Positions 2,131 through 40,712 are shown, numbered from the stretch's first letter. The stretch is 64,000 nucleotides of DNA from an uncultured Acetobacteraceae bacterium (GCA_964235485.1 CAXSAZ010000019.1:8984-72983), one strand, 5' to 3'. Numbers and translations: made by a program. Notes: generated from the letters alone by a model not told the origin.

Positions 2131-3999
2131 TCACGGCCGCCACGTCCCGCCGCCGGCGCCGGACAGCTCGCGGTCGAGGAAAAACGCGGCCGAGATGAGG
2201 GCCAGGTGGGTCAGCGCCTGCGGCGTGTTGCCGAGCTGCTCGCCGGACGGGCCGACCTCCTCCGAGAACAGGCCGAGGTGGTTGGCATGGCCCAGCATCT
2301 GCTCGAACACCAGCCGCGCTTCCGCGAGCCTTCCTGCGCGGGCCAGGCACTCGGCATACCAGAACGAGCACGCGGTGAAGGCGCCTTCCTGCCCGTCCAA
2401 GCCGTCATCCACCCGGTAGCGGAACACCAGCGCATCCTCCGCCAGCTCCCGCCCGATGGCGTCCAGCGTGGCCAGCCAGCGCGGGTCGGTGGCCGACACG
2501 AAGCGCACCAGCGGCAGCAGCAGCATGGCGCCGTCCAGGTGCGTGGCGCCGCGGGCCGCGACGAAGTGGCCGCGCTCCGCGTCCCAGAACTCGTCCCACA
2601 CGCTGGCGTGGATCTCGTCCCGCGCCGCGTGCCAGCGCACGAGCGGGGCGGGCAGGGAACGCTTCTGCGCCAGGCGCATCGCCCGGTCCACCGCCACCCA
2701 GCACATCACGCGGCTATGCAGCCAGTGCCGGGCCGGGCCGCGCATTTCCCAGATGCTCTGGTCCGGCTCCTTCCAATGCTCGCACACGTAGTCCACGGTG
2801 CGGATCGCATAGCGCCAGCCCTCGTGGCTGATCGCCTCGCCGTACTTGTTGGCGAGGTAGACGGCGTCCAGCAGCTCGCCGTAGATGTCGAGCTGGACCT
2901 GGCCATAGGCGGCGTTGCCGGTCCGCACGGGTGCCGCGCCCCCGTAGCCGCGCAGGTGCGGCAGCTCGGCCTCGTCCAGGCGTTCGTGCCCGTCCACGCC
3001 GTACATGATCTGCATGGACCCGTCGGACCCGCAGCCCTTGGCGCGCGCGCCCACCCAGCGCATGAAGGCGTTGGCCTCGTCAGCAAAGCCCAGCCGCATG
3101 AAGGCATACACCGTGAAGGACGCATCCCTGATCCATGTCGCCCGGTAATCCCAGTTCCGCCCGCCGCCCGGCGCTTCCGGCAAGCCAAAGGTCGCGGCCG
3201 CCACGACCGACCCGTGCCGGCGCGAGGTCAGCAGCTTGAGCGCCAGCGCCGAGCGCGTCACCGCCTCGCGCCAGCGCCCTTTGTAGCTGGAACGCGCGGC
3301 CCAGCCGTGCCAATGGGCGACGCAGGCCCGGAGCAGCGCCTCCGGGTCCGGCTGGCCCGGCGCTTCCGCGGCGTCCTCCAGCACGAACTCCGCGCATTCC
3401 TCCGCCCGCAACGTGAACTCGGCCACCGCCGCGCCGCCGTCGGGACCGGACTCGGCAGCCCCGGTTTCGACGGTCAGGGGCACCGTTCCCCACAGCCGCA
3501 GCGCCGGGCCGGCGTCGCCGCCGAACACGACGGCGTTCTCGGCGGGTTCCGCGCGGGTTTTGCTCCGCGCGTAGTCCAGGCGCGGGGCGCAGCGCAGGGC
3601 GAAGCGCACCTCGCCCCGCGCCGCGCGCACCCGGCGCACCAGGCGCGGCAAGCCGTCCGGCTCGGGGAAGGGCATGAAGTCCGTGATCTCGCCCACGCCG
3701 CCCGGCGCCGCGAAGCGGGTCAGCAGCACGTTGGTGTCCGGCAGGTACATCTGCCGCCGCCGCGGGCCGTCGAGCGCGGGGGCGATGCTCCACGCGCCGC
3801 CCCGCTCCGGGTCGAGCAGCGCCGCGAACACCGAGGGGCCGTCGAAGCCGGGCCAGCACAGGAAATCCACCGTGCCGTCCTCGGCCACCAGCGCCGCCGT
3901 GCCCTGGTCGCCCACCACGCCGTGCGCCTCGATGGGATGGGGGGCGGCCGGCGCCTTGGCCCGCTTCGCCTGCGCGCGGCCCGTGCCTTCCGGCATCAA
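2131..3999 (-). CDS. Glycoside hydrolase family 15 (glucoamylase/trehalase-like)
   Basis: RNWDYRATWIRDASF, SIWEMR, HSRVMCW, NHLGLFSEE...GNTPQALTH motifs. Confidence 0.9.
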   Translation of the reverse strand: MMPEGTGRAQAKRAKAPAAPHPIEAHGVVGDQGTAALVAEDGTVDFLCWPGFDGPSVFAALLDPERGGAWSIAPALDGPRRRQMYLPDTNVLLTRFAAPGGVGEITDFMPFPEPDGLPRLVRRVRAARGEVRFALRCAPRLDYARSKTRAEPAENAVVFGGDAGPALRLWGTVPLTVETGAAESGPDGGAAVAEFTLRAEECAEFVLEDAAEAPGQPDPEALLRACVAHWHGWAARSSYKGRWREAVTRSALALKLLTSRRHGSVVAAATFGLPEAPGGGRNWDYRATWIRDASFTVYAFMRLGFADEANAFMRWVGARAKGCGSDGSMQIMYGVDGHERLDEAELPHLRGYGGAAPVRTGNAAYGQVQLDIYGELLDAVYLANKYGEAISHEGWRYAIRTVDYVCEHWKEPDQSIWEMRGPARHWLHSRVMCWVAVDRAMRLAQKRSLPAPLVRWHAARDEIHASVWDEFWDAERGHFVAARGATHLDGAMLLLPLVRFVSATDPRWLATLDAIGRELAEDALVFRYRVDDGLDGQEGAFTACSFWYAECLARAGRLAEARLVFEQMLGHANHLGLFSEEVGPSGEQLGNTPQALTHLALISAAFFLDRELSGAGGGTWRP

Positions 4000-31594: not shown

Positions 31595-31667
31595 TCCGAC
31601 ACAATCAGTCTTCAATCTTCCGCGGCGTTGAGGATCGTCTTTGGCGAGTCCTTCAAGGGTGTCAGTC

Positions 31668-33167
31668 ATGTGGAAACAGGGCCAGTATCTTCGCCTAGTG
31701 ATCGTTGGGGGTGGACCTGCTGGTCTTGCCCCGCTTCTGGCGGCGCACCGTGCTGGCGAACTCGGCGCCCTGCTCGACGAGGGGGTGGCCGTCGTTGAGC
31801 AGTCCGCGCGCCTGGGATCTGGCTCGATCGGCGGCTATGCCATCAACTCGGACAGCAGCGGCCGCACCTTTGTCGATTGCCTGCTGGGCCACGAGGACAC
31901 CGCGCTGACGCGGCTTGCGGACCATCCTCTGACCCGGCGGCTGGCCGATGCGGGGGACGGCACCGTGGCGCTGCGCGACGCCGGGCAGTTCCTGGGGCTG
32001 GTGGGCGAGGCGATGGGCCGGATGTTCGCGGAATACCCCGCGAGCCGCGTCCTGACAACCCACCACGCCATCTCCGTCACGCGGACCGCCGGCGGCTGGA
32101 GCGTCCGCGTCCGCGACCTGGCCACGGGCGCCGAGCAAGCGTTGCTGACACGGCACGTCGTGCTGGCGACCGGCGCGGAGCAGCCGGTCGAACGCTTGGC
32201 GGCGGAAACGGTGGCCGGCGTCAACCTCGTGCAGCGCTGCGCCGGACGCCTGCTGCAATCGGGCGACGTGCTGTCCACTGGCGGGCTTGAGCGCGTGGCG
32301 GGCCTGCTGGCGGCCAAGCCCGACCCCCAGGTGGTGATCGTGGGCGGATCAACCAGCGCCGCTTCCGTCGCCCACGCCCTGCTGCACCGCCTGCCGGGGG
32401 TCCGGTTCGGCGCGGGCGGCGTCACCCTGATGCACCGCCGCGAGCTGCGCATCTACTACCCGGACCGCGCCTCGGCCCTCGCGGACGACTACACCGAGTG
32501 GACGGAGGACGACGTTTGCCCGATCAGCGGCAAGGTGTTCCGGTTCGCCGGGTTCCGGCTGGATGCGCGGGAGCTGGTCATGCAGGCGCGCGGCATCGGC
32601 GGCCGACCTCCGGAGCCGCGGGTCCGCCTGCACCGGCTCGGCGCCTCGCGCAAATCGCCTGATGGCTCGCCGAAACGCGAAGTCACCGAATCGCCGGAAC
32701 CCGAAGGGTTTGCGGCTGGTTTCGCTGACGACGCGGGTGCCGTGCGGCTGCTGGACGGGGCCGCCCTGGTGATCGCCGCCCTGGGTTACCGGCCCCGGGC
32801 GTTGCCGGTGTACGGCCACAACGGGCAACCGGTCACGCTGCTGTCGCAGACCGGGCCGCAGCAGCCCTTGGTGGACGGCCAGTGCCGGGTGCTGGACGGC
32901 GACGGGCGGCCCGTGCCTGGCTTGTTCGGGATCGGCCTCGGCGCCGGCTTCGTGCCGCGCGGCCGTTTGGGCGGGGAAGCGAGCTTCCGCGGCCAGGCCA
33001 ACGGCCTTTGGCTGTGGCAGCACGATGTCGGCTCGCTGATCATCGACGCCGTGATGCGGCCGTTCGGCGCCGCCTTGGCGCTGCCGGACGGCCTGCTGTG
33101 CCGGGCGCCCAGGCTTGCGCCCAGCCTCGCGCCCAGCCTTGCCGCCGCCGTCGTCGAGGAGGTTTAA
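31668..33167 (+). CDS. FAD/NAD(P)-binding oxidoreductase of unknown function, with an internal repeat-element insertion
   Basis: IVGGGPAG, VVLATGA, VIVGGSTSA, LFGIGL motifs. Confidence 0.75.
   Translation: MWKQGQYLRLVIVGGGPAGLAPLLAAHRAGELGALLDEGVAVVEQSARLGSGSIGGYAINSDSSGRTFVDCLLGHEDTALTRLADHPLTRRLADAGDGTVALRDAGQFLGLVGEAMGRMFAEYPASRVLTTHHAISVTRTAGGWSVRVRDLATGAEQALLTRHVVLATGAEQPVERLAAETVAGVNLVQRCAGRLLQSGDVLSTGGLERVAGLLAAKPDPQVVIVGGSTSAASVAHALLHRLPGVRFGAGGVTLMHRRELRIYYPDRASALADDYTEWTEDDVCPISGKVFRFAGFRLDARELVMQARGIGGRPPEPRVRLHRLGASRKSPDGSPKREVTESPEPEGFAAGFADDAGAVRLLDGAALVIAALGYRPRALPVYGHNGQPVTLLSQTGPQQPLVDGQCRVLDGDGRPVPGLFGIGLGAGFVPRGRLGGEASFRGQANGLWLWQHDVGSLIIDAVMRPFGAALALPDGLLCRAPRLAPSLAPSLAAAVVEEV
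32649..32727 (+). repeat. CG-flanked short interspersed element, copy 1 (in frame in the oxidoreductase)
   Basis: CG|CGCAAATCGCC-TGAT-GGCTCGCCGAAACGCG-28 nt-GTTTGCGGCTGGTTTCGCTG|ACG; encodes RKSPDGSPKREVTESPEPEGFAAGFA. Confidence 0.8.
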
Positions 33168-33169
33168 CC

Positions 33170-34489
33170 GTGGCAGTGCCCCTGATCCGCCCAAGCCCGC
33201 CGCCTTTGAGCCAGGCCGCCGCGCGGCTCCGCGAGATCGAGGACAGCGGGGTATTCAGCAACTTCGGCCCCGTCAACACCCGGCTTGAGCACGACATGGT
33301 TGCCCGCCTGTTCGGCGGCGAAGGCGCCTGCGTGGCCGTGTGCAACGCCACGATCGGGCTGATGCTTGCGGTGCAGCAGGCCATCGGCGCCCCGCGCAAA
33401 CCGCGGAGGACGCGCTACGCGCTGATGCCTTCCTTCACCTTTGCCGCTGCCGCCCAGGCCGCCCTGTGGTGCGGGCTCGTGCCGTTGTTCTGCGACATCG
33501 ACCCGGAAACCTGGACCGCCTGCGCCGCCGACGAGGAGCGGCTGCTCGCCCGTTACGGCAGCGACATCGCCGTCGTCATGCCGTACGCCACCTTCGGCTA
33601 CGACCTTGACCTTTCGCGCTACGCGGCGCTGACCCGGCGCCATGGCGTGCCCGTGGTGGTGGACGCCGCCGCCTCGCTCGGCACGGCGTCGGCTGACGGG
33701 CGCGGGTTCGGGACCGGGTTCACCGGCTCGGTCGTTTACTCGATGCACGCCACCAAGTCGTTCTCGACCGGCGAGGGCGGCATCGTTTACAGCGCAAACC
33801 CGGACACGGTGGCGCGGCTACGGCAGATGTGCAATTTCGGGTTCGCAGCGAAACCAGCCGCAAACGCCCCGCGTTTCGGCGAGCCGACCGGCGATTTGCG
33901 CGGCCAGTCCGCTGGGAGCGCTGCTCCGCAGCCGCGGACGGCGATCATGCCCGGCCTGAACGGCAAGCTCAGCGAGGTGGGCGCGCTGCTGGCGCATCTC
34001 CGCCTGGACGGGTATCACGAGGTCCTGTCGCACCGGGCGGCCCTGATGCGCGGCTACCGGGAGGCCTTGCCGGAGCTGACCTACCAGCCGGAGCTGCCGG
34101 GCACGCAGGCGCATCAGTTCGCGCCCGGGCTGCTGCCCCCGGCGCTGGCGCCCTTGCGCGGCGAGATCGCGGCGGCGCTGGCCGAACAAGGCATCGGCTC
34201 CGCCACCTATTTCAGCCCCCATCTGGCGCAGCAGGACTACTTCGCCGAGCATGGGGTCGGCGGCGCGCTGCCGGTGACGGACGACGTGGCCAGCCGCATC
34301 GTCAGCCTGCCGCTGTTCGACAGCATGACCCCGTTGAACCTGGTGGAAGTGACCACCGCCGTGCGGCGGGAGCTGACGCGGGCGGCGCGGACGGTCCGCC
34401 GCCGCGCGTCCCGCCGCGCCGGGCCACCGGCGCTGCCGCCCGTGCTGGCCCAGCACGCTCCGCTTGATCGAACGCCTGCGCAGACCTGA
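33170..34489 (+). CDS. DegT/DnrJ/EryC1/StrS PLP-dependent aminotransferase
   Basis: NFGP, VCNATIGL, PSFTFAA, VDAAASLG, YSMHATKSFSTGEGG, NGKLSE; GGAGG RBS and GTG start. Confidence 0.9.
   Translation: MAVPLIRPSPPPLSQAAARLREIEDSGVFSNFGPVNTRLEHDMVARLFGGEGACVAVCNATIGLMLAVQQAIGAPRKPRRTRYALMPSFTFAAAAQAALWCGLVPLFCDIDPETWTACAADEERLLARYGSDIAVVMPYATFGYDLDLSRYAALTRRHGVPVVVDAAASLGTASADGRGFGTGFTGSVVYSMHATKSFSTGEGGIVYSANPDTVARLRQMCNFGFAAKPAANAPRFGEPTGDLRGQSAGSAAPQPRTAIMPGLNGKLSEVGALLAHLRLDGYHEVLSHRAALMRGYREALPELTYQPELPGTQAHQFAPGLLPPALAPLRGEIAAALAEQGIGSATYFSPHLAQQDYFAEHGVGGALPVTDDVASRIVSLPLFDSMTPLNLVEVTTAVRRELTRAARTVRRRASRRAGPPALPPVLAQHAPLDRTPAQT
33846..33900 (-). repeat. Same element, copy 2 (inverted, in frame in the aminotransferase)
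   Basis: Reverse complement reads CG|CGCAAATCGCC-GGTC-GGCTCGCCGAAACGCG-GGGC-GTTTGCGGCTGGTTTCGCTG|CG; 55 bp + CG = 57 bp. Confidence 0.82.
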
Positions 34490-34505
34490 CGAAGAAGGCC
34501 CTGGA

Positions 34506-35450
34506 ATGCGCTACGCCGTGATCTTTAAGACCTATGCGTGGGATGCGTTCGTGCATCGCCAGGCATCCCGCTGCGAGGCAGCGGCGGGTCCGGGCGACTT
34601 CTTCGTCTCAATCGACGAAACCAACGGCCCCGTCGGCCCGGTCCCGTTCGGCCGCGTGCACCGCACCAGCAACGCCGAGATCACCGCCTCGGGGTTCGCC
34701 GACCGGTTCGAGAAGGGGTCGCTGATTTGGTGGAACCCGGACTACGTGCACTACCATTTCGCGGAACGGCATCCTGGGTACGACTACTACGTGTTCGTGG
34801 AGTACGACGCCGTGGTTCGGACCAGCATCGGGCGCATGGTCGAGCAGATGGCGGCACGGCAGGTGGATCTGGTTGATCTTCCCCGGCGCACGCCCAAGCA
34901 GGACTGGTTCTGGACCCTTTACCATCGGCAAACCTATGCGTTCGAGGAGCTGCAGGGTTCGTTGATCTGCGTGACGGCGTTCTCCTGCCGCGCGCTTCGA
35001 TTGTTGGCCCGGCGGCGGCGGGAGATGGCGGGGGATCGCGCCGTCCGCTTCTGGCCGATGGCGGAGGTGTTCATCCCGACCGAGATCGCCCGGGCCGGCC
35101 TTCATTCCATGTCCCTGGCCGAGTTCGCCCCCGTGGACCAATACCAATGGTTCCCGCCGGTCCTGGAAGACGACCTGGCCGGCGCGGGCGGGGACGCTTT
35201 TCTGCATCCCGTGCTCGACCGGGACCGCTACGTCGCGGCGATGCTGAAATCGACCGCCCGGTTCCGAAGCTTCCTGTATCCCCGAAGCCGGATGTGGCAA
35301 TCGCTCCTGCGGTTTCCCAAGCACGAATACCTGCCCATGCTGTACGGCGCGGCGTATCGCCGGCTGCGCATGAGCCTCAAGGAGAAGGTGCAGATCCGGC
35401 GGCTGCGGCGCATGGTCGCCCCCATGGGCGGCGAACCAACGCGGCAATAA
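34506..35450 (+). CDS. Hypothetical protein, possibly glycosyltransferase-like
   Basis: 314-aa ORF; YDYYVFVEYDAV resembles a DxD-type motif after a beta strand; operonic with the DegT gene. Confidence 0.6.
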   Translation: MRYAVIFKTYAWDAFVHRQASRCEAAAGPGDFFVSIDETNGPVGPVPFGRVHRTSNAEITASGFADRFEKGSLIWWNPDYVHYHFAERHPGYDYYVFVEYDAVVRTSIGRMVEQMAARQVDLVDLPRRTPKQDWFWTLYHRQTYAFEELQGSLICVTAFSCRALRLLARRRREMAGDRAVRFWPMAEVFIPTEIARAGLHSMSLAEFAPVDQYQWFPPVLEDDLAGAGGDAFLHPVLDRDRYVAAMLKSTARFRSFLYPRSRMWQSLLRFPKHEYLPMLYGAAYRRLRMSLKEKVQIRRLRRMVAPMGGEPTRQ

Positions 35451-35457
35451 GGCGGCG

Positions 35458-35495
35458 GGCTCGCCGAAACGCGCAACGTTTGCGGCTGGGTTTGC
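35458..35495 (+). repeat. Same element, partial intergenic copy
   Basis: GGCTCGCCGAAACGCG-CAAC-GTTTGCGGCTGG core; terminal motifs degenerate. Confidence 0.72.
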
Positions 35496-35582
35496 CTACC
35501 TGGGCGGCAGCGAAGCCCCGGCTCCGGTCGCGCCCGTGCCGGTCCCGTGCTTTCTTCCCTCCAACAGGCTTGGAGGGACGCC

Positions 35583-36710
35583 ATGGACGCGAGCTACCAG
35601 TTCGGCATCGAGGAGGAGTATTTCCTGGCGGACGCTGCCACGCGCGGCACGCCGCGGCGCCGGGTTGCGGCGTTCCACGCGGCGGCCCAGGCCCGCCTGC
35701 CGGCGGCGGAGCGCGAGCTGCTGCAATCGCAGATCGAGGTTTCGTCGGAGCCGTCCATCAGCTTCGAGAGCACGCGCGAGGCGTTGGGCGCGCTGCGCGC
35801 CGGGTTGGCGGAGGTCGGCCGCGACCATGGCGTCCTGGTGCTCGCGGCCGGCACCCACCCGGTGGCCCGCTGGTCGCGCCAAAGCCAAACGCCCAAAGGG
35901 CGCTACGACGAGATCATGGCAAAGACCCGGATCACCGGGCGGCGCAGCGTGGTGTGCGGTATGCACGTCCACGTGGAGGTGCCCCGGCCCGAGGCGCGCA
36001 TCGATCTGATGAACCGGCTGCTGCCCGCCATGCCGCTGCTGCTGGCGCTGTCCGCGTCCTCGCCGTTCTGGCAAGGGCGGGCGACGGGGATGGCGGCCTA
36101 CCGCATGTCGGTGTTCGGCGAGATGCCGCGCTCCGGGCTGCCGGACCTGTTCGACGGGCCGGAGGACTACGCGCGCTACGTGGACGCCATGACCCGGGCC
36201 GGGTCCATCGCGGACGCGAGCTTCCTGTGGTGGACGCTGCGCCCGTCCATACGCTACCCGACGCTGGAATTGCGGGTGGCGGATAGCTGCACGCTGCTGG
36301 CGCACACGCTGGCCATCGCCGCGCTGTACCGCTGCCTGGTGCGCCTCGCGGACCGGCGGCCCGAATGGAACCGGGGCCTGACCGGCGCGTCCCGCGCCCT
36401 CGTTGCGGAGAACCTGTGGCGCGCGCAGAGCGACGGGGTGCGCGCCGAGCTGATCGACGTGTTCACCGGCGAGGCGCGGCCCTTTGCGGCCTGCCTCGGT
36501 ACGGTGCTGGAGGAGGTGGCGGAGGACGCCGACGCCCTGGGCTGCGCCGGCGAGGCGGCGGCGGCGCGGGACATCGTGGCCGGCGGCACCAGCGCGGACC
36601 GGCAGGCCGCCGCCTTTCACGCGGCGCGCGGGCGCGGCCTGGACGAGCGCGAAGCGACCGGCGCCGTCGTGGACTGGCTCGCCCGGGCGACGGCGGGCGT
36701 CGAGGCGTGA
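35583..36710 (+). CDS. ybdK: Carboxylate-amine ligase (YbdK/GCS2 family)
   Basis: FGIEEEYFL, ELLQSQIE, CGMHVHV, SSPFW, WWTLRPS..YPTLELRVAD. Confidence 0.9.
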   Translation: MDASYQFGIEEEYFLADAATRGTPRRRVAAFHAAAQARLPAAERELLQSQIEVSSEPSISFESTREALGALRAGLAEVGRDHGVLVLAAGTHPVARWSRQSQTPKGRYDEIMAKTRITGRRSVVCGMHVHVEVPRPEARIDLMNRLLPAMPLLLALSASSPFWQGRATGMAAYRMSVFGEMPRSGLPDLFDGPEDYARYVDAMTRAGSIADASFLWWTLRPSIRYPTLELRVADSCTLLAHTLAIAALYRCLVRLADRRPEWNRGLTGASRALVAENLWRAQSDGVRAELIDVFTGEARPFAACLGTVLEEVAEDADALGCAGEAAAARDIVAGGTSADRQAAAFHAARGRGLDEREATGAVVDWLARATAGVEA

Positions 36711-36791: not shown

Positions 36792-39700
36792 CTACACCCC
36801 GAACGCCGTCCGCCCCAACGCCTGCCCGGTGGCGAGGAAGCTCGCCAGCGGGTCCGTCCCGCCCGCGCGCACGTCCGGGTAGGCCGCCAGGTACTTGGCC
36901 GTGGAAAAGGCGGCGGAGGGGTCGCGGCCCTCCTTCCAGCCGTGGTCCTCGTAATGGCGCAACGGGTTGATCCCCGCCGCGCGCACGTCGGGGTTGCGGG
37001 ACAGGTAGTAGCTCGTGTCGAAAAAGGCGTCGGGGTCCAGGCCCTGCCGCCAGCCTCCCTGGTCGTAGCTGGCCGCCGCGTCCGCGCCGGCGGGCACGAC
37101 CGTCGCGACCTGGGCGAAGTAGAAGGCGCGGTCGATCAACGGGTCCGGCGCGGCGGGCGTGGCCTCCGGGGCGTTGATGAAGGCCGGGCGGCCTTCCCCT
37201 CGGCCATAGGCCAGGTAATGGGCCAGCGGGTTCGCCCCGGTCGCCGCCACGTCGGGGTTTGCGGCCAGGTACTGGCGGTCGCTGAAGGCGAGCGACGGTT
37301 CCCGGCCTTCTCGCCAGCCCGCGGCCTCGAACTGCGCCAGCGGGTCCAGCTTGGCGGCGGCCACGTCCGGGTTCGACCGGAGGTAATACGTCGTGTCGAA
37401 GAACGGGTCCGGGTTGAAGCCCAGCGTCCAGCCGACCCGGTGGTAATGGGCGCTGGCGTCTTCCCCCGAGGTCGCCACGTCCGGATGCTGCGCCAGGTAC
37501 CAGGCGCGGTCCACCAGCGGGTCCTGCGGGCCGACCGGATGCGGCGCGGCCGGGGCGGCGGCGCGGCCCTCGGCGCGGCCATACAGAAGAAAGTGCTGCA
37601 AAGGGTCCATGCCCGCCGCCCGCACGTCCGGGTTGGCGCGGAGATAGGCGGCCGTGCCGAAGCCCGGGCCGGGGTCGCGGCCTTCGCGCCAGCCGCGGTC
37701 CGCGTAGTGCGCCAAGGGGTTGACGCCCGCCGCGGCCACGTCGGGGTTCTGGTTCAGGTACCAGGCCGTGCTGAAAAAAGCGTTGGGGTCGCGGCCCTCT
37801 TTCCAGCCGTACTCCCCGTAATGCCGCAACGGGTCGAGCCGGGCCGCGGCCACGTCGGGGTTGCGGGCGAGGTACCAGGCCGCGTCGAAATCCCGGCCCG
37901 GCCCGGCGAGCACCGGGGCGCTCAGCCGGTGCGTGGTGCGCAGCAGCGTGCCCCCGGCGCCGTCGGCCGCGAGGCTGAACTCGCCTGCGGCGTAGGTCCC
38001 GCCCGAAAGGACGAAGCGCGCCGCCACGGTGCCGCCCGCGCTGACCTGCACGGCGCCGCCGGCCAGGCCGACGGACAGGCCGGGGCCGTAGGCCAGGCCT
38101 TGCAGGTCGATGCTGTCGCCGTTCTGGAAGTCGCGCAGGGTTGCGGAGATGGATGCGGAGGTGCCGGGGCCGCCCCCGAACACCAGCCGGGCCGTGGGGT
38201 CCAGAAAGGCGACGGTGCCGCCGAGTGCCGTGGACGTGCCAACCGTGAGCGTCGCGGCGTCCAGCGTGATGAGGCCGGTGTTGGCGAGCGTGCCCGCGCG
38301 GGCGGCGCCGTGGCTGATTGCGAGCGTTCCGGCGTTGGCGAGCGTCCCGTAATCGGCGTCGCCGGTCTGCGTGACGGTGCCGGCGTTGCTCAGCCCCGAA
38401 GCGGTGCCGCGCGCCGGGGACACGGTGGAGAAGCCGCCGGCGATGGCCAGCGTGGTTCCCGCACCCAGCAGTACCGGGCCGTCCGCCGCGGTTGAAAGCG
38501 CGCCGCCGGCCATTCGCAAGTCCGTGTTGTCCAGCGCGCCCGACAGCTCCAGGCTGGATCCGCTGGCGGCAAGGTCGATCAAGGCCCGGGCGCCGTTCCT
38601 GCCCTGCACGGCGGTGCCGCCCTTGAACTGGTATGCGGCCCGGGCCGTGGGCGCAAAAGCGCCGCGCCAGGACACGCCGTCCAGCACAACCGTGCCGGTG
38701 AAATCGAGGCTGCCGCCCGCGGCCGTGACGGCGCCGCCTTTCAGGGTGGGGTTGAGCGCCGCGATGCCGTTGAGCCGGCTCGCCAGCAGCACCAAGGACG
38801 CCCCGGTGTTGTCCCATGTCGCGTTCGGCGCCAAGCCCACCGTGCCCGGCCCGGCGGCCCGGCCCGCCAGGGCAGCCAAACCCGCCGTGGTCACCGTGCC
38901 CGACACGTTCAGCCGGCTGCCGAGGTTCAGGACCAGCGGGCCGCTGCCTTGAAAGCTGCCATCCACGGTGAGCGTGCCGTTGCTCTCCACCGTGACGCTG
39001 CCCGCGGTTGTGGCGTTGCCAAGCGCGCTGTTGCCGGTCACGTCCAGCGCCAGCCCCGCCCCCAACGTCAGGGGCACCCCGTCCGCCGCGGACAGCGTTG
39101 CGTCCTCCAAGCGCAGGGCGGCGTTGTCCAGACGCTCCGTGTCCGTGGCTTGCAAGGACAAGCGGCTCAGCGTCAGCGCCCCCGGCCCGGCGCCGTCCGC
39201 TCCGAGCAAGGGCAGGCCGCCGCGGAAGAACACTGCGGGCGGCGGGGTGTCGATGGACGGGCTGGGCGTGCCGGCCAGCGTCACCGGGCCGCGCAGGGCC
39301 ACGCCGTCCAGGGTCGTGGCCGGGCCGAGCGTCACCGTGCCGCCCGCCACCGTGCCGCCGCGCAGCACGCCCGCAAACGTCAGCCGGCCCGCCACCGTGG
39401 CGCCTGGCGACAAAGTGGCGCCCGTGTTGTCGAGGATGCCGTTGAAGCTCACCCCGCCCGCGCCGGACACCCCGCCGAGCGCCGCGGCGTAGGCCGTGGT
39501 CGTCAGCGGCCCCGACAGCGCCAGGGTTCCATCGATAACCGCGCCCGCGAGGCCGGCCAGCGGGGCGGTGCCCGTCCAACTCAGCGAAAGCGTTCCGCGG
39601 GTGGCGACGTTGAGGCTGCCACAGCCGCAAACGCCTTGCGTTTCGGCGACGGCGCGGGCCAACGTCGTGCCGGGCGCGACCGCCAGCGTGGCGCCGGGCT

Positions 39701-40367
39701 GCACCGCGACCGCGCCGGCATTGCGGAAGGTGCCGCCGCCGCCCACGGTCAAGAGGCTCCCCACGTCCAGGAACGCATCGGGGCCGAGCGTAAGCGCCAA
39801 GCCCGGCGCGGTGGTCAGCAATTGGCCGGAAGGGTTCGCGGGCGCGATGAAGCGGAGATCGACGTGATCCAGCACCTCCGCGTCCAGCGCGCGCACCTCG
39901 GACGCGGCGCCCGCCACCGTGACCGTGCCGCGGCCCGCGCCGGACGGCCCGGCGAACGTCGTCCCGCCCCGTAGCCCGAGCACTGCGCCGTAGCCCGGGA
40001 ACGGGTCGGCCCCCCCGGTCCCCACCGACACGCCGCCCTGCACGCCCACGCCGTCCAGAACCCCGACCAGGCCGTACGCGCCCTCCGAGTTGAAGCGCAG
40101 CGTGCCGCCGGATAAGCGCAGGGTGCCGCCTCGCACCGTGCCGCCGTTCAGGTTGACCTCTGCCAGCGCCGTGCCCGGCTTGACCTCCAGCACCGAGCCG
40201 GATGCGGTGTTGTCCACCGTGCCGCGAAGCGTCACCGGGCCGGCGGGGGCGCCGGCGAGGCTGGCAAGCAAGGCCGCCGTCGTGATGTCGCCAAAAGAGG
40301 ACGCGGCTGCGGCCGGGGCAGCGGCCGCGGTCGCTGCCGTGGCAGCGGCCAGCGCAACTGGTTGCAT
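36792..40367 (-). CDS. Large surface/secreted protein: Gly/Ala/Thr-rich beta-helix-like region plus C-terminal F/xDxxxYLxxNPDV...PLxHYxxxGWxEGRDP repeats
   Basis: About six ~35-aa repeats in the last ~370 aa; N-terminal region rich in G/T/A/L beta-strand repeats; start uncertain. Confidence 0.75.
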   Translation of the reverse strand: MQPVALAAATAATAAAAPAAAASSFGDITTAALLASLAGAPAGPVTLRGTVDNTASGSVLEVKPGTALAEVNLNGGTVRGGTLRLSGGTLRFNSEGAYGLVGVLDGVGVQGGVSVGTGGADPFPGYGAVLGLRGGTTFAGPSGAGRGTVTVAGAASEVRALDAEVLDHVDLRFIAPANPSGQLLTTAPGLALTLGPDAFLDVGSLLTVGGGGTFRNAGAVAVQPGATLAVAPGTTLARAVAETQGVCGCGSLNVATRGTLSLSWTGTAPLAGLAGAVIDGTLALSGPLTTTAYAAALGGVSGAGGVSFNGILDNTGATLSPGATVAGRLTFAGVLRGGTVAGGTVTLGPATTLDGVALRGPVTLAGTPSPSIDTPPPAVFFRGGLPLLGADGAGPGALTLSRLSLQATDTERLDNAALRLEDATLSAADGVPLTLGAGLALDVTGNSALGNATTAGSVTVESNGTLTVDGSFQGSGPLVLNLGSRLNVSGTVTTAGLAALAGRAAGPGTVGLAPNATWDNTGASLVLLASRLNGIAALNPTLKGGAVTAAGGSLDFTGTVVLDGVSWRGAFAPTARAAYQFKGGTAVQGRNGARALIDLAASGSSLELSGALDNTDLRMAGGALSTAADGPVLLGAGTTLAIAGGFSTVSPARGTASGLSNAGTVTQTGDADYGTLANAGTLAISHGAARAGTLANTGLITLDAATLTVGTSTALGGTVAFLDPTARLVFGGGPGTSASISATLRDFQNGDSIDLQGLAYGPGLSVGLAGGAVQVSAGGTVAARFVLSGGTYAAGEFSLAADGAGGTLLRTTHRLSAPVLAGPGRDFDAAWYLARNPDVAAARLDPLRHYGEYGWKEGRDPNAFFSTAWYLNQNPDVAAAGVNPLAHYADRGWREGRDPGPGFGTAAYLRANPDVRAAGMDPLQHFLLYGRAEGRAAAPAAPHPVGPQDPLVDRAWYLAQHPDVATSGEDASAHYHRVGWTLGFNPDPFFDTTYYLRSNPDVAAAKLDPLAQFEAAGWREGREPSLAFSDRQYLAANPDVAATGANPLAHYLAYGRGEGRPAFINAPEATPAAPDPLIDRAFYFAQVATVVPAGADAAASYDQGGWRQGLDPDAFFDTSYYLSRNPDVRAAGINPLRHYEDHGWKEGRDPSAAFSTAKYLAAYPDVRAGGTDPLASFLATGQALGRTAFGV

Positions 40368-40712
40368 GGACAGGACGCCCCGTGCCGGATTTCGCGAGAA
40401 CCAACAAATTGCCACGAAGCAGGAACGAAGTCAATGTGCTTCCGATTTGATCGGGTCGCCGCATGGCGGGCGCGGCCTCGGGATCGGCGTCCGATCAGGA
40501 CGCAGGCCGGCGCTGTCGTTGGTGAACAGGTCGAGCGTGCCGAAGCCGCGCGGCAGCGGCCGGATTGCCTCGGCCTCCGCGCCGATGGCCGGTCCAGGGC
40601 GGAGCGCAACCTGTCCTCCCAAACCGGGTCGGGCGCGCAGGGGCGGTGCCGCTCCCTTGAGGATGCGTGGCCCGCCGCATAGTAAGGGTGCAAACCTTGC
40701 AAGGATGGCTCG

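Follow-up and report, generated by a model that had tools for sequence, protein, structure and literature searches.

Very small DNA hairpins inserted in frame in protein genes of a lichen-associated Acetobacteraceae genus

We analysed a 64,000-nt stretch of DNA (hereafter the window; positions are counted from its first letter) from the genome of an uncultured Acetobacteraceae bacterium (GCA_964235485.1), in which short hairpin repeats lie inside two neighbouring protein genes and in a nearby intergenic spacer. The window corresponds to C19:8984-72983 of this genome, G000 (5.05 Mb in 129 contigs, 69.8% G+C, 99.95% complete). The host region consists of three neighbouring plus-strand genes, encoding an oxidoreductase, an aminotransferase and a 314-aa protein with no Pfam match. 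Five variable sites fall inside 4 kb: A and C in the oxidoreductase, B and D in the aminotransferase, and E in the intergenic spacer at 35458. The features are listed below, with F1, F2 and F3 denoting the hairpin subfamilies described later in the text.

31641-33167, plus strand: open frame of the Pyr_redox_2 oxidoreductase
32646-32726, plus strand: site A insert, 81 nt (27 codons), in frame in the oxidoreductase
33170-34489, plus strand: open frame of the DegT/DnrJ/EryC1 aminotransferase
33394-33408, plus strand: site D remnant, an F2/F3 left arm (GCGCAAACCGCGGAG) in the QQAIG..RYALMP loop of the aminotransferase
33845-33901, minus strand: site B insert, 57 nt (19 codons), in frame in the DegT-family aminotransferase
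33908-33931, plus strand: second hairpin insert, 24 nt (TCCGCTGGGAGCGCTGCTCCGCAG, encoding QSAGSAAP), in frame in the aminotransferase, bounded by CAG...CAG
35458-35489, plus strand: site E, a complete single F1 unit, intergenic, 8 nt past the stop codon of the 314-aa gene

An initial annotation of the window had described one short element, present as insertions in the oxidoreductase and, inverted, in the aminotransferase, and as a partial copy at 35458. Exact matches bear out all three positions: a 16-mer (GGCTCGCCGAAACGCG) occurs at 32664 (plus), 33870 (minus) and 35458 (plus), and a 12-mer (GTTTGCGGCTGG) at 32708 (plus), 33854 (minus) and 35478 (plus). A further match, GCGCAAATCGCC, is found at 32648 (plus) and 33890 (minus). 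Filled and empty sites were compared using six orthologous loci (L001-L006) from five different samples (Logan SRR23143850; ENA ERZ22826856, ERZ27253049, ERZ27253056 and ERZ27247747) and 25 aligned aminotransferase orthologues from metagenome assemblies, and the insert lengths of 81 and 57 nt are set against empty orthologous sites. The related loci come from lichen metagenomes, as bins labelled uncultured Acetobacteraceae or Rhodospirillales, and PMC11542873 describes data sets of this kind. Strains of 72-96% identity differ in whether an orthologous site holds a hairpin unit.

Site A is empty in L001, L002, L004 and L006 (CTCGGCGCY/GACGAC; HRLG/ADDAG, the slash marking the insertion point), and is occupied in the window, in L003 (81 nt) and in L005 (93 nt). 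Taking the 81 nt out of the oxidoreductase leaves LGADDAGAV, which corrects LGASDAGAV. At site C (CLLGDE/DT), a 57-nt insert is present in the oxidoreductases of L002 and L004 only, and the window is empty.

Site B is empty (NFGF/GQPRTA) in P0004/L001, which is 96% identical to the window protein over aligned columns, in P0012-P0067 and in L006, and every more distant homologue, down to Acidisoma, reads NFGF-G-QPRTA. Seven close orthologues (P0005-P0011) carry inserts of 10-38 residues at this position, and the site B inserts in other close strains measure 54-114 nt. The 81-nt and 57-nt segments are accordingly in-frame insertions as first proposed, the latter inverted, and both have orthologues that lack them. 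The window protein itself reads NFGF-(19 residues)-G-(QSAGSAAP)-QPRTA. Because the 24-nt hairpin insert directly adjoins the 57-nt one, excising the 57 nt alone fails to restore NFGFGQPRTA, and on this point the expectation of a smooth join did not stand. The 24-nt insert is absent from all aligned orthologues except P0005. It represents a different small family, the fourth (F4-like), which is similarly built, with a stem containing one bulged G (CCGCTGGGAGC-NNN-GCTCCGCAG, 24 nt). Only three copies of this 24-mer are present in the genome (at most 4 mismatches), and related copies occur on contigs C2 (in tandem) and C9.

Site D, the second hot spot of the aminotransferase, is empty in L006; in L004 it is filled by a complete F2 hairpin of 27 nt, and in L001 by a larger composite. 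The anchor-to-anchor lengths are 35 nt in L006, 41 nt in the window and 128 nt in L001. In a sequence alignment to the closest solved structure, PDB 3JU7, chain residues 5-221 and 224-363 pair with aminotransferase residues 3-226 and 256-393. A 2-residue junction between the large pyridoxal-phosphate domain and the C-terminal domain is thereby replaced with 29 residues, comprising both inserts (57 and 24 nt). By this alignment the insert position is a linker between two domains, and site D lies in a gapped loop of the same alignment.

At site E, no unit is found in L002 or L004 and a single one in the window and in L001; L003 has two nested units, and L005 an array of about five hairpins. The 35458 copy is not partial but a complete basic F1 unit. 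Gene content also differs here: L003-L005 contain one to three extra genes (Trypsin_2/PDZ, GerE-type regulator, Trypsin/PDZ) past the 314-aa gene. In L005, the extra trypsin/GerE-type genes sit between the 314-aa gene and a GCS2 gene, and the window and L001 run straight from the 314-aa gene to GCS2 without extra genes. The difference begins at the hairpin-bearing intergenic site (window ~35450-35580; L003:6284-6417; L004:6308-6383; L005:6263-8798).

Assembly or binning artefacts, or ancestral protein segments lost in some lineages, are a very improbable source of these inserts. The division of the genome into 129 contigs, and the fact that its relatives are mostly metagenome bins, speak for such an origin. 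However, the same inserts are found in independent assemblies from different samples with their frames intact, and the same 28-nt sequence stands at more than 50 unrelated loci. The segments are also missing from distant homologues down to Acidisoma and from PDB 3JU7, which indicates that the empty state is ancestral.

All units, 25-28 nt in length, share one design, in which a G+C basal stem of 3-4 bp is followed by one conserved bulged base and 4 bp of AAAY/RTTT pairing, and then by a distal stem and loop that vary freely in sequence with pairing retained. F1 is the 28-nt unit TCGCCGAAACGCGAAGCGTTTGCGGCTG, which folds, with a single bulged base, into GCCG-AAAC-GC / GC-GTTT-(G)-CGGC (-9.6 kcal/mol, z -2.4). 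F2 has the form cGCG-C-AAAT-stem-loop-stem-ATTT-CGCtg and stands alone 15-19 times, and F3 is an intermediate subfamily with GCG-C-AAAC. On the opposite strand, F1 follows the F2 plan (basal G+C stem, bulged C, AAAY, distal stem and loop, RTTT, basal stem), and F1, F2 and F3 are subfamilies of one superfamily. At their ends, F1 conserves T/C-CGCC...GCTG-G/A and F2 c-GCGC...CGCTG, and the information profile of F1 shows sharp unit borders with unrelated flanks.

Single units fold at -9.6 and -7.1 kcal/mol (z ~ -2.4), and a 60-nt nested F1 pair also folds better than shuffled sequences. The 81-nt and 57-nt composites fold no better than shuffles (z -0.55 and +0.63). Eight compensatory double changes were observed in F1 at two pair positions (basal CG to GC four times, distal GC to CG four times), and the unpaired positions show ~3.5 times more variation per position than the paired ones. 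The distal stems of F2 covary as well (CGC/GCG, CC/GG, GGC/GCC).

Both inserts in the window are nested composites, in which F1 lies within the loop of an F2 hairpin. At site A, the F2 arms (GCGCAAATCGCC ... GGTTTCGCT) enclose an F1 left half (32664-32682) and a full F1 variant (32690-32719); at site B, the F2 hairpin contains one F1 unit in its loop, and is inverted relative to the oxidoreductase copy. The initial annotation had proposed that a single element has fixed termini, CGCAAATC...TTTCGCTG, on either side of a core; these termini are the arms of F2, with F1 nested in the loop. Its observation is confirmed, and its interpretation is right in the main point and wrong in the anatomy. Nesting recurs elsewhere, with F1 inserted in an inverted F1 at C10, C61 and site C of L002/L004, and with same-orientation F1 in F1 at C26 and L003. 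Tandem duplication of arms occurs as well (12-nt GTTTGCGGCTGA unit), and site lengths drift between strains via arm duplication and further nesting. Stop-free coding in all six frames was considered as an adaptation and rejected, as 49% of genomic 28-mers are also stop-free.

To describe the occurrence of the repeats, the genome was scanned for strict bulged hairpins, spanning 22-27 nt between basal stems; the scan returned 54 in the genome and 0 in the reversed, non-complemented genome, a number beyond chance. Further copies, whose absence would have counted against the initial annotation, are numerous. F1 accounts for ~30-37 copies (regex and nhmmer; ~37 by nhmmer at E<1e-3). It was detected in 16 of 18 same-genus genomes, in counts of 1-29 (29 in G000), and in none of 23 genomes from other genera. 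The F2/F3 pattern gave 19 and 9 matches in two genomes of the genus, and 0-1 in 79 other genera of the family, these being non-hairpin chance matches. The repeats are confined to one lichen-associated Acetobacteraceae genus.

The more than 50 occupied loci are mutually unrelated and concentrated in accessory DNA and dead transposase genes. Contigs of at least 100 kb, which make up 50% of the genome, hold only 10 of the 54 hairpins (p=2e-6), and 29 of the 54 lie less than 5 kb from a contig end (p=1e-7). Gaps between copies on the same contig are shorter than 2 kb in 16 of 27 cases, against a mean spacing of 94 kb. Transposase hosts, identified by Pfam, include IS66 (two or three units in one gene), IS5/DUF4096 and IS630-type DDE_3 (three genes); DUF772, Tn3 DUF4158 and a MutS domain V fragment are further hosts. 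Just past the right end of the window, a fragmented IS66-family transposase gene (G000 C19:73684-74919) contains two F1 copies, one full (TFPAANASRFGE) and one partial (GETRSVCSG), besides an F2 hairpin. The MutS domain V fragment (G000 C48:1544-2209) contains an in-frame F1 (HEL[AETRSVCRW]ADV), its upstream region is not MutS in the same frame, and its probable identity is a mutS pseudogene, or else a fragment of a paralogue, in accessory DNA. In G004 (20 contigs), five of eight F1 copies lie within 130 kb on C4:197-324 kb, possibly a plasmid or island, and in the complete relative G015, eight of nine F2/F3 copies are on one strand.

At least 7 copies lie inside intact genes, which encode ChaC (C28), a 4HBT_2 thioesterase (C14), a 1207-aa protein, the oxidoreductase and the aminotransferase. 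Every insert in an intact gene has a length divisible by three (81, 57, 24, 27 and 27 nt), a point in favour of the initial annotation. They are predicted to add 8-38 residues, in linker or loop regions where placement was possible.

The hairpins could instead be functional host elements, such as mRNA stabilisers or terminators, or protein-binding, recombination or uptake signals, placed by selection, with the intragenic copies being accidental. The compensatory changes by which structure is conserved fit this explanation, as does the copy at 35458, since 8 nt past a stop codon is the usual place of mRNA-stabilising repetitive extragenic palindromic (REP) sequences, many of which act as RNA elements (Di Nocera et al. 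2013, PMC3733652). However, close strains differ in which sites are occupied, with one to five units per occupied site, and the F1 count ranges from 0 to 29 across genomes of the genus. Many copies lie in dead transposase genes, on either strand. There is no T-run 3' of the hairpin, and G-T and A-C mismatches are about equally frequent, which gives no sign of pairing in an RNA strand only. We therefore regard placement by selection for a host function as improbable.

Three further copies within the window lie outside the host region described above.

39616-39652, minus strand: F1 in frame in the 1207-aa protein, AVAETQGVCGCGS (nhmmer E=1.6e-8)
60809-60833, plus strand: stand-alone F2, 25 nt, CGCGCAAATCCTTCGGATTTCGCTG, in a dead DUF772 (IS1182/IS5-type) transposase gene, where it shifts the frame
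61202-61233, plus strand: diverged F1 with a compensatory basal-stem change (GCGA/GCCGC), in an IS630-type (DDE_3) transposase remnant

The F1 in the 1207-aa protein leaves the same codon phase on both sides and keeps the frame open, as judged from the window sequence alone. This repeat-rich protein (36792-40415, minus strand) has no Pfam match, and its C-terminal half contains many copies of a motif resembling NPDVAAAG..PL.HY...GW.EGR.P.

We examined the insertion junctions by pairing filled sites with empty ones. Four independent single-unit F1 sites, one of them intergenic, show a net gain of 27 nt. In the ChaC gene, GGGCT/GGACC becomes GGGCT(CGCCGAAACGCGAAGCGTTTGCGGCTG)GGACC; the site is filled in three genomes of the genus, the empty junction was read in five others, and the lengths of further matches also fit the empty state. 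The 4HBT_2 site is empty (GGCCAT/GTTCAT) in 13 orthologues of the filled C14 copy. The other two pairs come from an insertion sequence (IS)-like paralogue set (C113 against C2, C5 and C13) and from an intergenic site upstream of a gene on C41. Paralogous empty sites are available for C113, C26 and window position 60809. None of the four clean F1 pairs shows a target duplication, and 1-2 border bases differ at the junctions (T/C, T/A, AT). At the F2 junctions, by contrast, CG is found on both sides of the 25-nt insert at 60809, where the C29 paralogue has the empty site TTCA/CGGATG, and of the 57-nt insert at site B. This 2-nt ambiguity could reflect a 2-nt duplication or microhomology. At site A, there is no CG duplication. 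The CG-targeting proposed in the initial annotation thus holds as an ambiguity at these two F2 junctions and fails at site A and the four F1 pairs, and a uniform CG target duplication was rejected on the same grounds.

The gain is 27 nt even in non-coding DNA, so that a single F1 insertion never shifts the frame; the unit itself therefore preserves the frame, and selection is not the sole reason. Selection is still visible, in that the 25-nt F2 stands in a dead gene and intact genes have inserts of 3n length only.

The principal rival explanation is templated insertion by host repair or replication, in which template switching or end-joining would copy a hairpin locus into a break using 1-3 nt of microhomology. 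In its favour are the absence of a transposase and of a regular target duplication, the 1-2-nt ambiguities or replaced bases at the junctions (CG at F2; T/C, T/A and AT at F1), and the occurrence of copies nested in or beside copies together with tandem arm duplication (GTTTGCGGCTGA repeats). However, it leaves unexplained the constant gain of 27 nt at four sites and the sharp borders, which point to a defined unit that is precisely processed and not to ragged copying. Every subfamily moreover keeps the bulged base, suggesting recognition by a protein. On balance we consider templated insertion unlikely, though less so than a host function.

Several other identities were tried. The idea that the hairpin is the terminal repeat of some larger element was rejected, as the 500-nt flanks are unrelated in all-against-all BLAST, save for a few IS paralogues and one duplicated segment. 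The open reading frames between hairpin pairs (C26, C6, C19) are not element genes, but ordinary IS or island genes that were hit internally. Integron attC-like and dif/Xer-like sites were considered and dropped, as the arms do not seem to fit their consensus sequences. A search of Rfam 15 over 32000-36000 gave nothing at or above the gathering score; the best match, to the GRIK4 3' untranslated region, overlaps the 57-nt insert (33828-33923, minus strand; 24 bits against a gathering score of 38, E=0.09), and is a chance match on a G+C-rich hairpin. The conserved ends of F1 and F2 contain neither a GTAG nor a CGTC tag. The statement in the initial annotation that the family was not recognised is therefore upheld.

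Taken as a whole, the repeats are likely to be a genus-specific superfamily of very small selfish DNA hairpins, similar to REPs and to Rickettsia palindromic elements (RPEs). We propose that they spread via a single-stranded hairpin intermediate, which would be recognised by its shape by some protein, since the bulge is conserved and the stem changes are compensatory. Insertion would proceed without the staggered cuts that yield target-site duplications, and the enzyme involved would be one other than a RAYT/IS200-type Y1 transposase. The encoded peptides may be passengers that the proteins tolerate and not functional modules, and harmful insertions would be removed by purifying selection.

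A number of observations weigh against this interpretation. PF01797 (Y1_Tnp/RAYT) gave no match in G000 or in 16 of the 18 genus genomes, with matches obtained in control genomes, and the two remaining genus genomes contain PF01797 fragments only; a RAYT/Y1 transposase was rejected as the mover on this basis. No IS with ends matching the hairpins was found in the search, nor was the cognate transposase envisaged by the initial annotation. The evidence for mobility consists of presence/absence polymorphism, which in principle includes precise losses. The F1 and F2 junctions differ, and the pairs did not yield a single clean insertion rule. About 50 copies per genome, and 0-29 F1 matches across the genus, are low numbers for a classical REP family. 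Weaker selection in junk DNA, and not targeting, could account for part of the clustering of copies. Finally, the AlphaFold model of the aminotransferase is poor (mean predicted local distance difference test score 57) and unusable for placing the insert.

A more specific version is that the repeats are a new class of mini-elements, trans-mobilised or free of an autonomous enzyme, moved by a non-RAYT, hairpin-recognising activity that inserts a precise 27-nt unit without duplication. This activity would prefer the loops or flanks of existing hairpins and often single-stranded DNA (plasmids, IS-rich islands), and the 3n length would be an adaptation to colonise coding sequence. We put this forward as a doubtful conjecture; if true, the repeats would be a natural and continuing source of new protein linkers, variable in length, for a free-living bacterium.

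Comparison with known systems places the repeats closest to RPEs and REPs. RPEs are described, in the accounts of Ogata et al. 2000 and 2002 given in PMC10969869 and PMC3733652, as Rickettsia repeats of ~100-150 bp (RPE-1 to RPE-10). In those accounts they are, like the hairpins studied here, selfish palindromes inserted in frame in unrelated, apparently functional alphaproteobacterial protein genes, adding peptides at tolerated positions, with several subfamilies and no known transposase. In-frame insertion with empty orthologous sites was likewise found here for the oxidoreductase, the aminotransferase, ChaC and the 4HBT_2 thioesterase, and the parallel drawn by the initial annotation is apt. 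As described there, RPEs differ in size (~100-150 bp against 25-28 nt, or nine codons) and in host, their hosts being obligate intracellular and A+T-rich, whereas the present genus is lichen-associated with a 70% G+C, 5-Mb genome. The present units further differ from RPEs in that they nest and multiply at a site, resulting in strain-variable linker lengths, and in that they lie mostly in accessory DNA, not in core metabolic genes. By size and host they fall outside the RPE families, and they are probably unrelated to them in sequence.

REPs and their doublets (REPINs) are 20-40-nt imperfect hairpins, sometimes bulged, whose subfamilies differ in compensatory changes of the stem; clusters or inverted pairs are frequent, a copy is occasionally intragenic, and target duplication is lacking (PMC3733652). 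The present repeats share these features, including a short imperfect palindrome repeated throughout the genome (54 strict hairpins against 0). A REPIN-like doublet of identical inverted F3 hairpins, 55 nt apart, is present at G000 C113:2539-2562 (plus) and 2618-2641 (minus). Unlike REPs, they have no GTAG or CGTC tag and no RAYT gene in G000 or 16 of the 18 genus genomes. They number ~50 rather than hundreds, and are enriched in accessory DNA, many in transposase genes, rather than in the extragenic core genome. CGTC repeats have been reported to be missing from Acetobacteraceae (Di Nocera et al. 2013, PMC3733652).

Bacterial MITEs (miniature transposable elements with inverted repeats: Correia/NEMIS, ERIC, RUP, Nezha and others) are 70-300+ bp long, with the terminal inverted repeats of a parent IS and fixed target duplications, and are likewise short non-autonomous repeats able to form in-frame fusions with host genes (PMC10969869). 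The repeats described here have no parent IS and no regular duplication (none at the four F1 pairs), the flanks of their copies are mutually unrelated, and one small hairpin makes up the entire unit. Intragenic tandem repeats and contingency loci resemble site B, where the in-frame length is strain-variable (54-114 nt) and partly due to a tandem 12-nt arm. However, what expanded at site B is a dispersed repeat that had inserted where relatives have an empty site, and not a simple-sequence tract, and there is no evidence of on/off switching. The kind of element is thus known, namely in-frame selfish palindromes, and this hairpin family is new.

Selfish palindromes that lie in frame within proteins have mostly been regarded as peculiar to Rickettsia, with scattered intragenic REPs in other organisms. 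Here, they occur in a large, G+C-rich, environmentally abundant lichen symbiont lineage, with a nine-codon unit that is frame-neutral by its own length. At a practical level, the repeats break assemblies, with over half lying less than 5 kb from a contig end, and inflate the apparent protein divergence between strains; they are also possible strain markers for the genus in lichen metagenomes. The lack of RAYT and of GTAG/CGTC tags makes this a clean system for seeking other ways of moving DNA hairpins, and the five polymorphic sites form a natural series, from empty through one unit to nested and expanded arrays, for the origin and growth of linker insertions.

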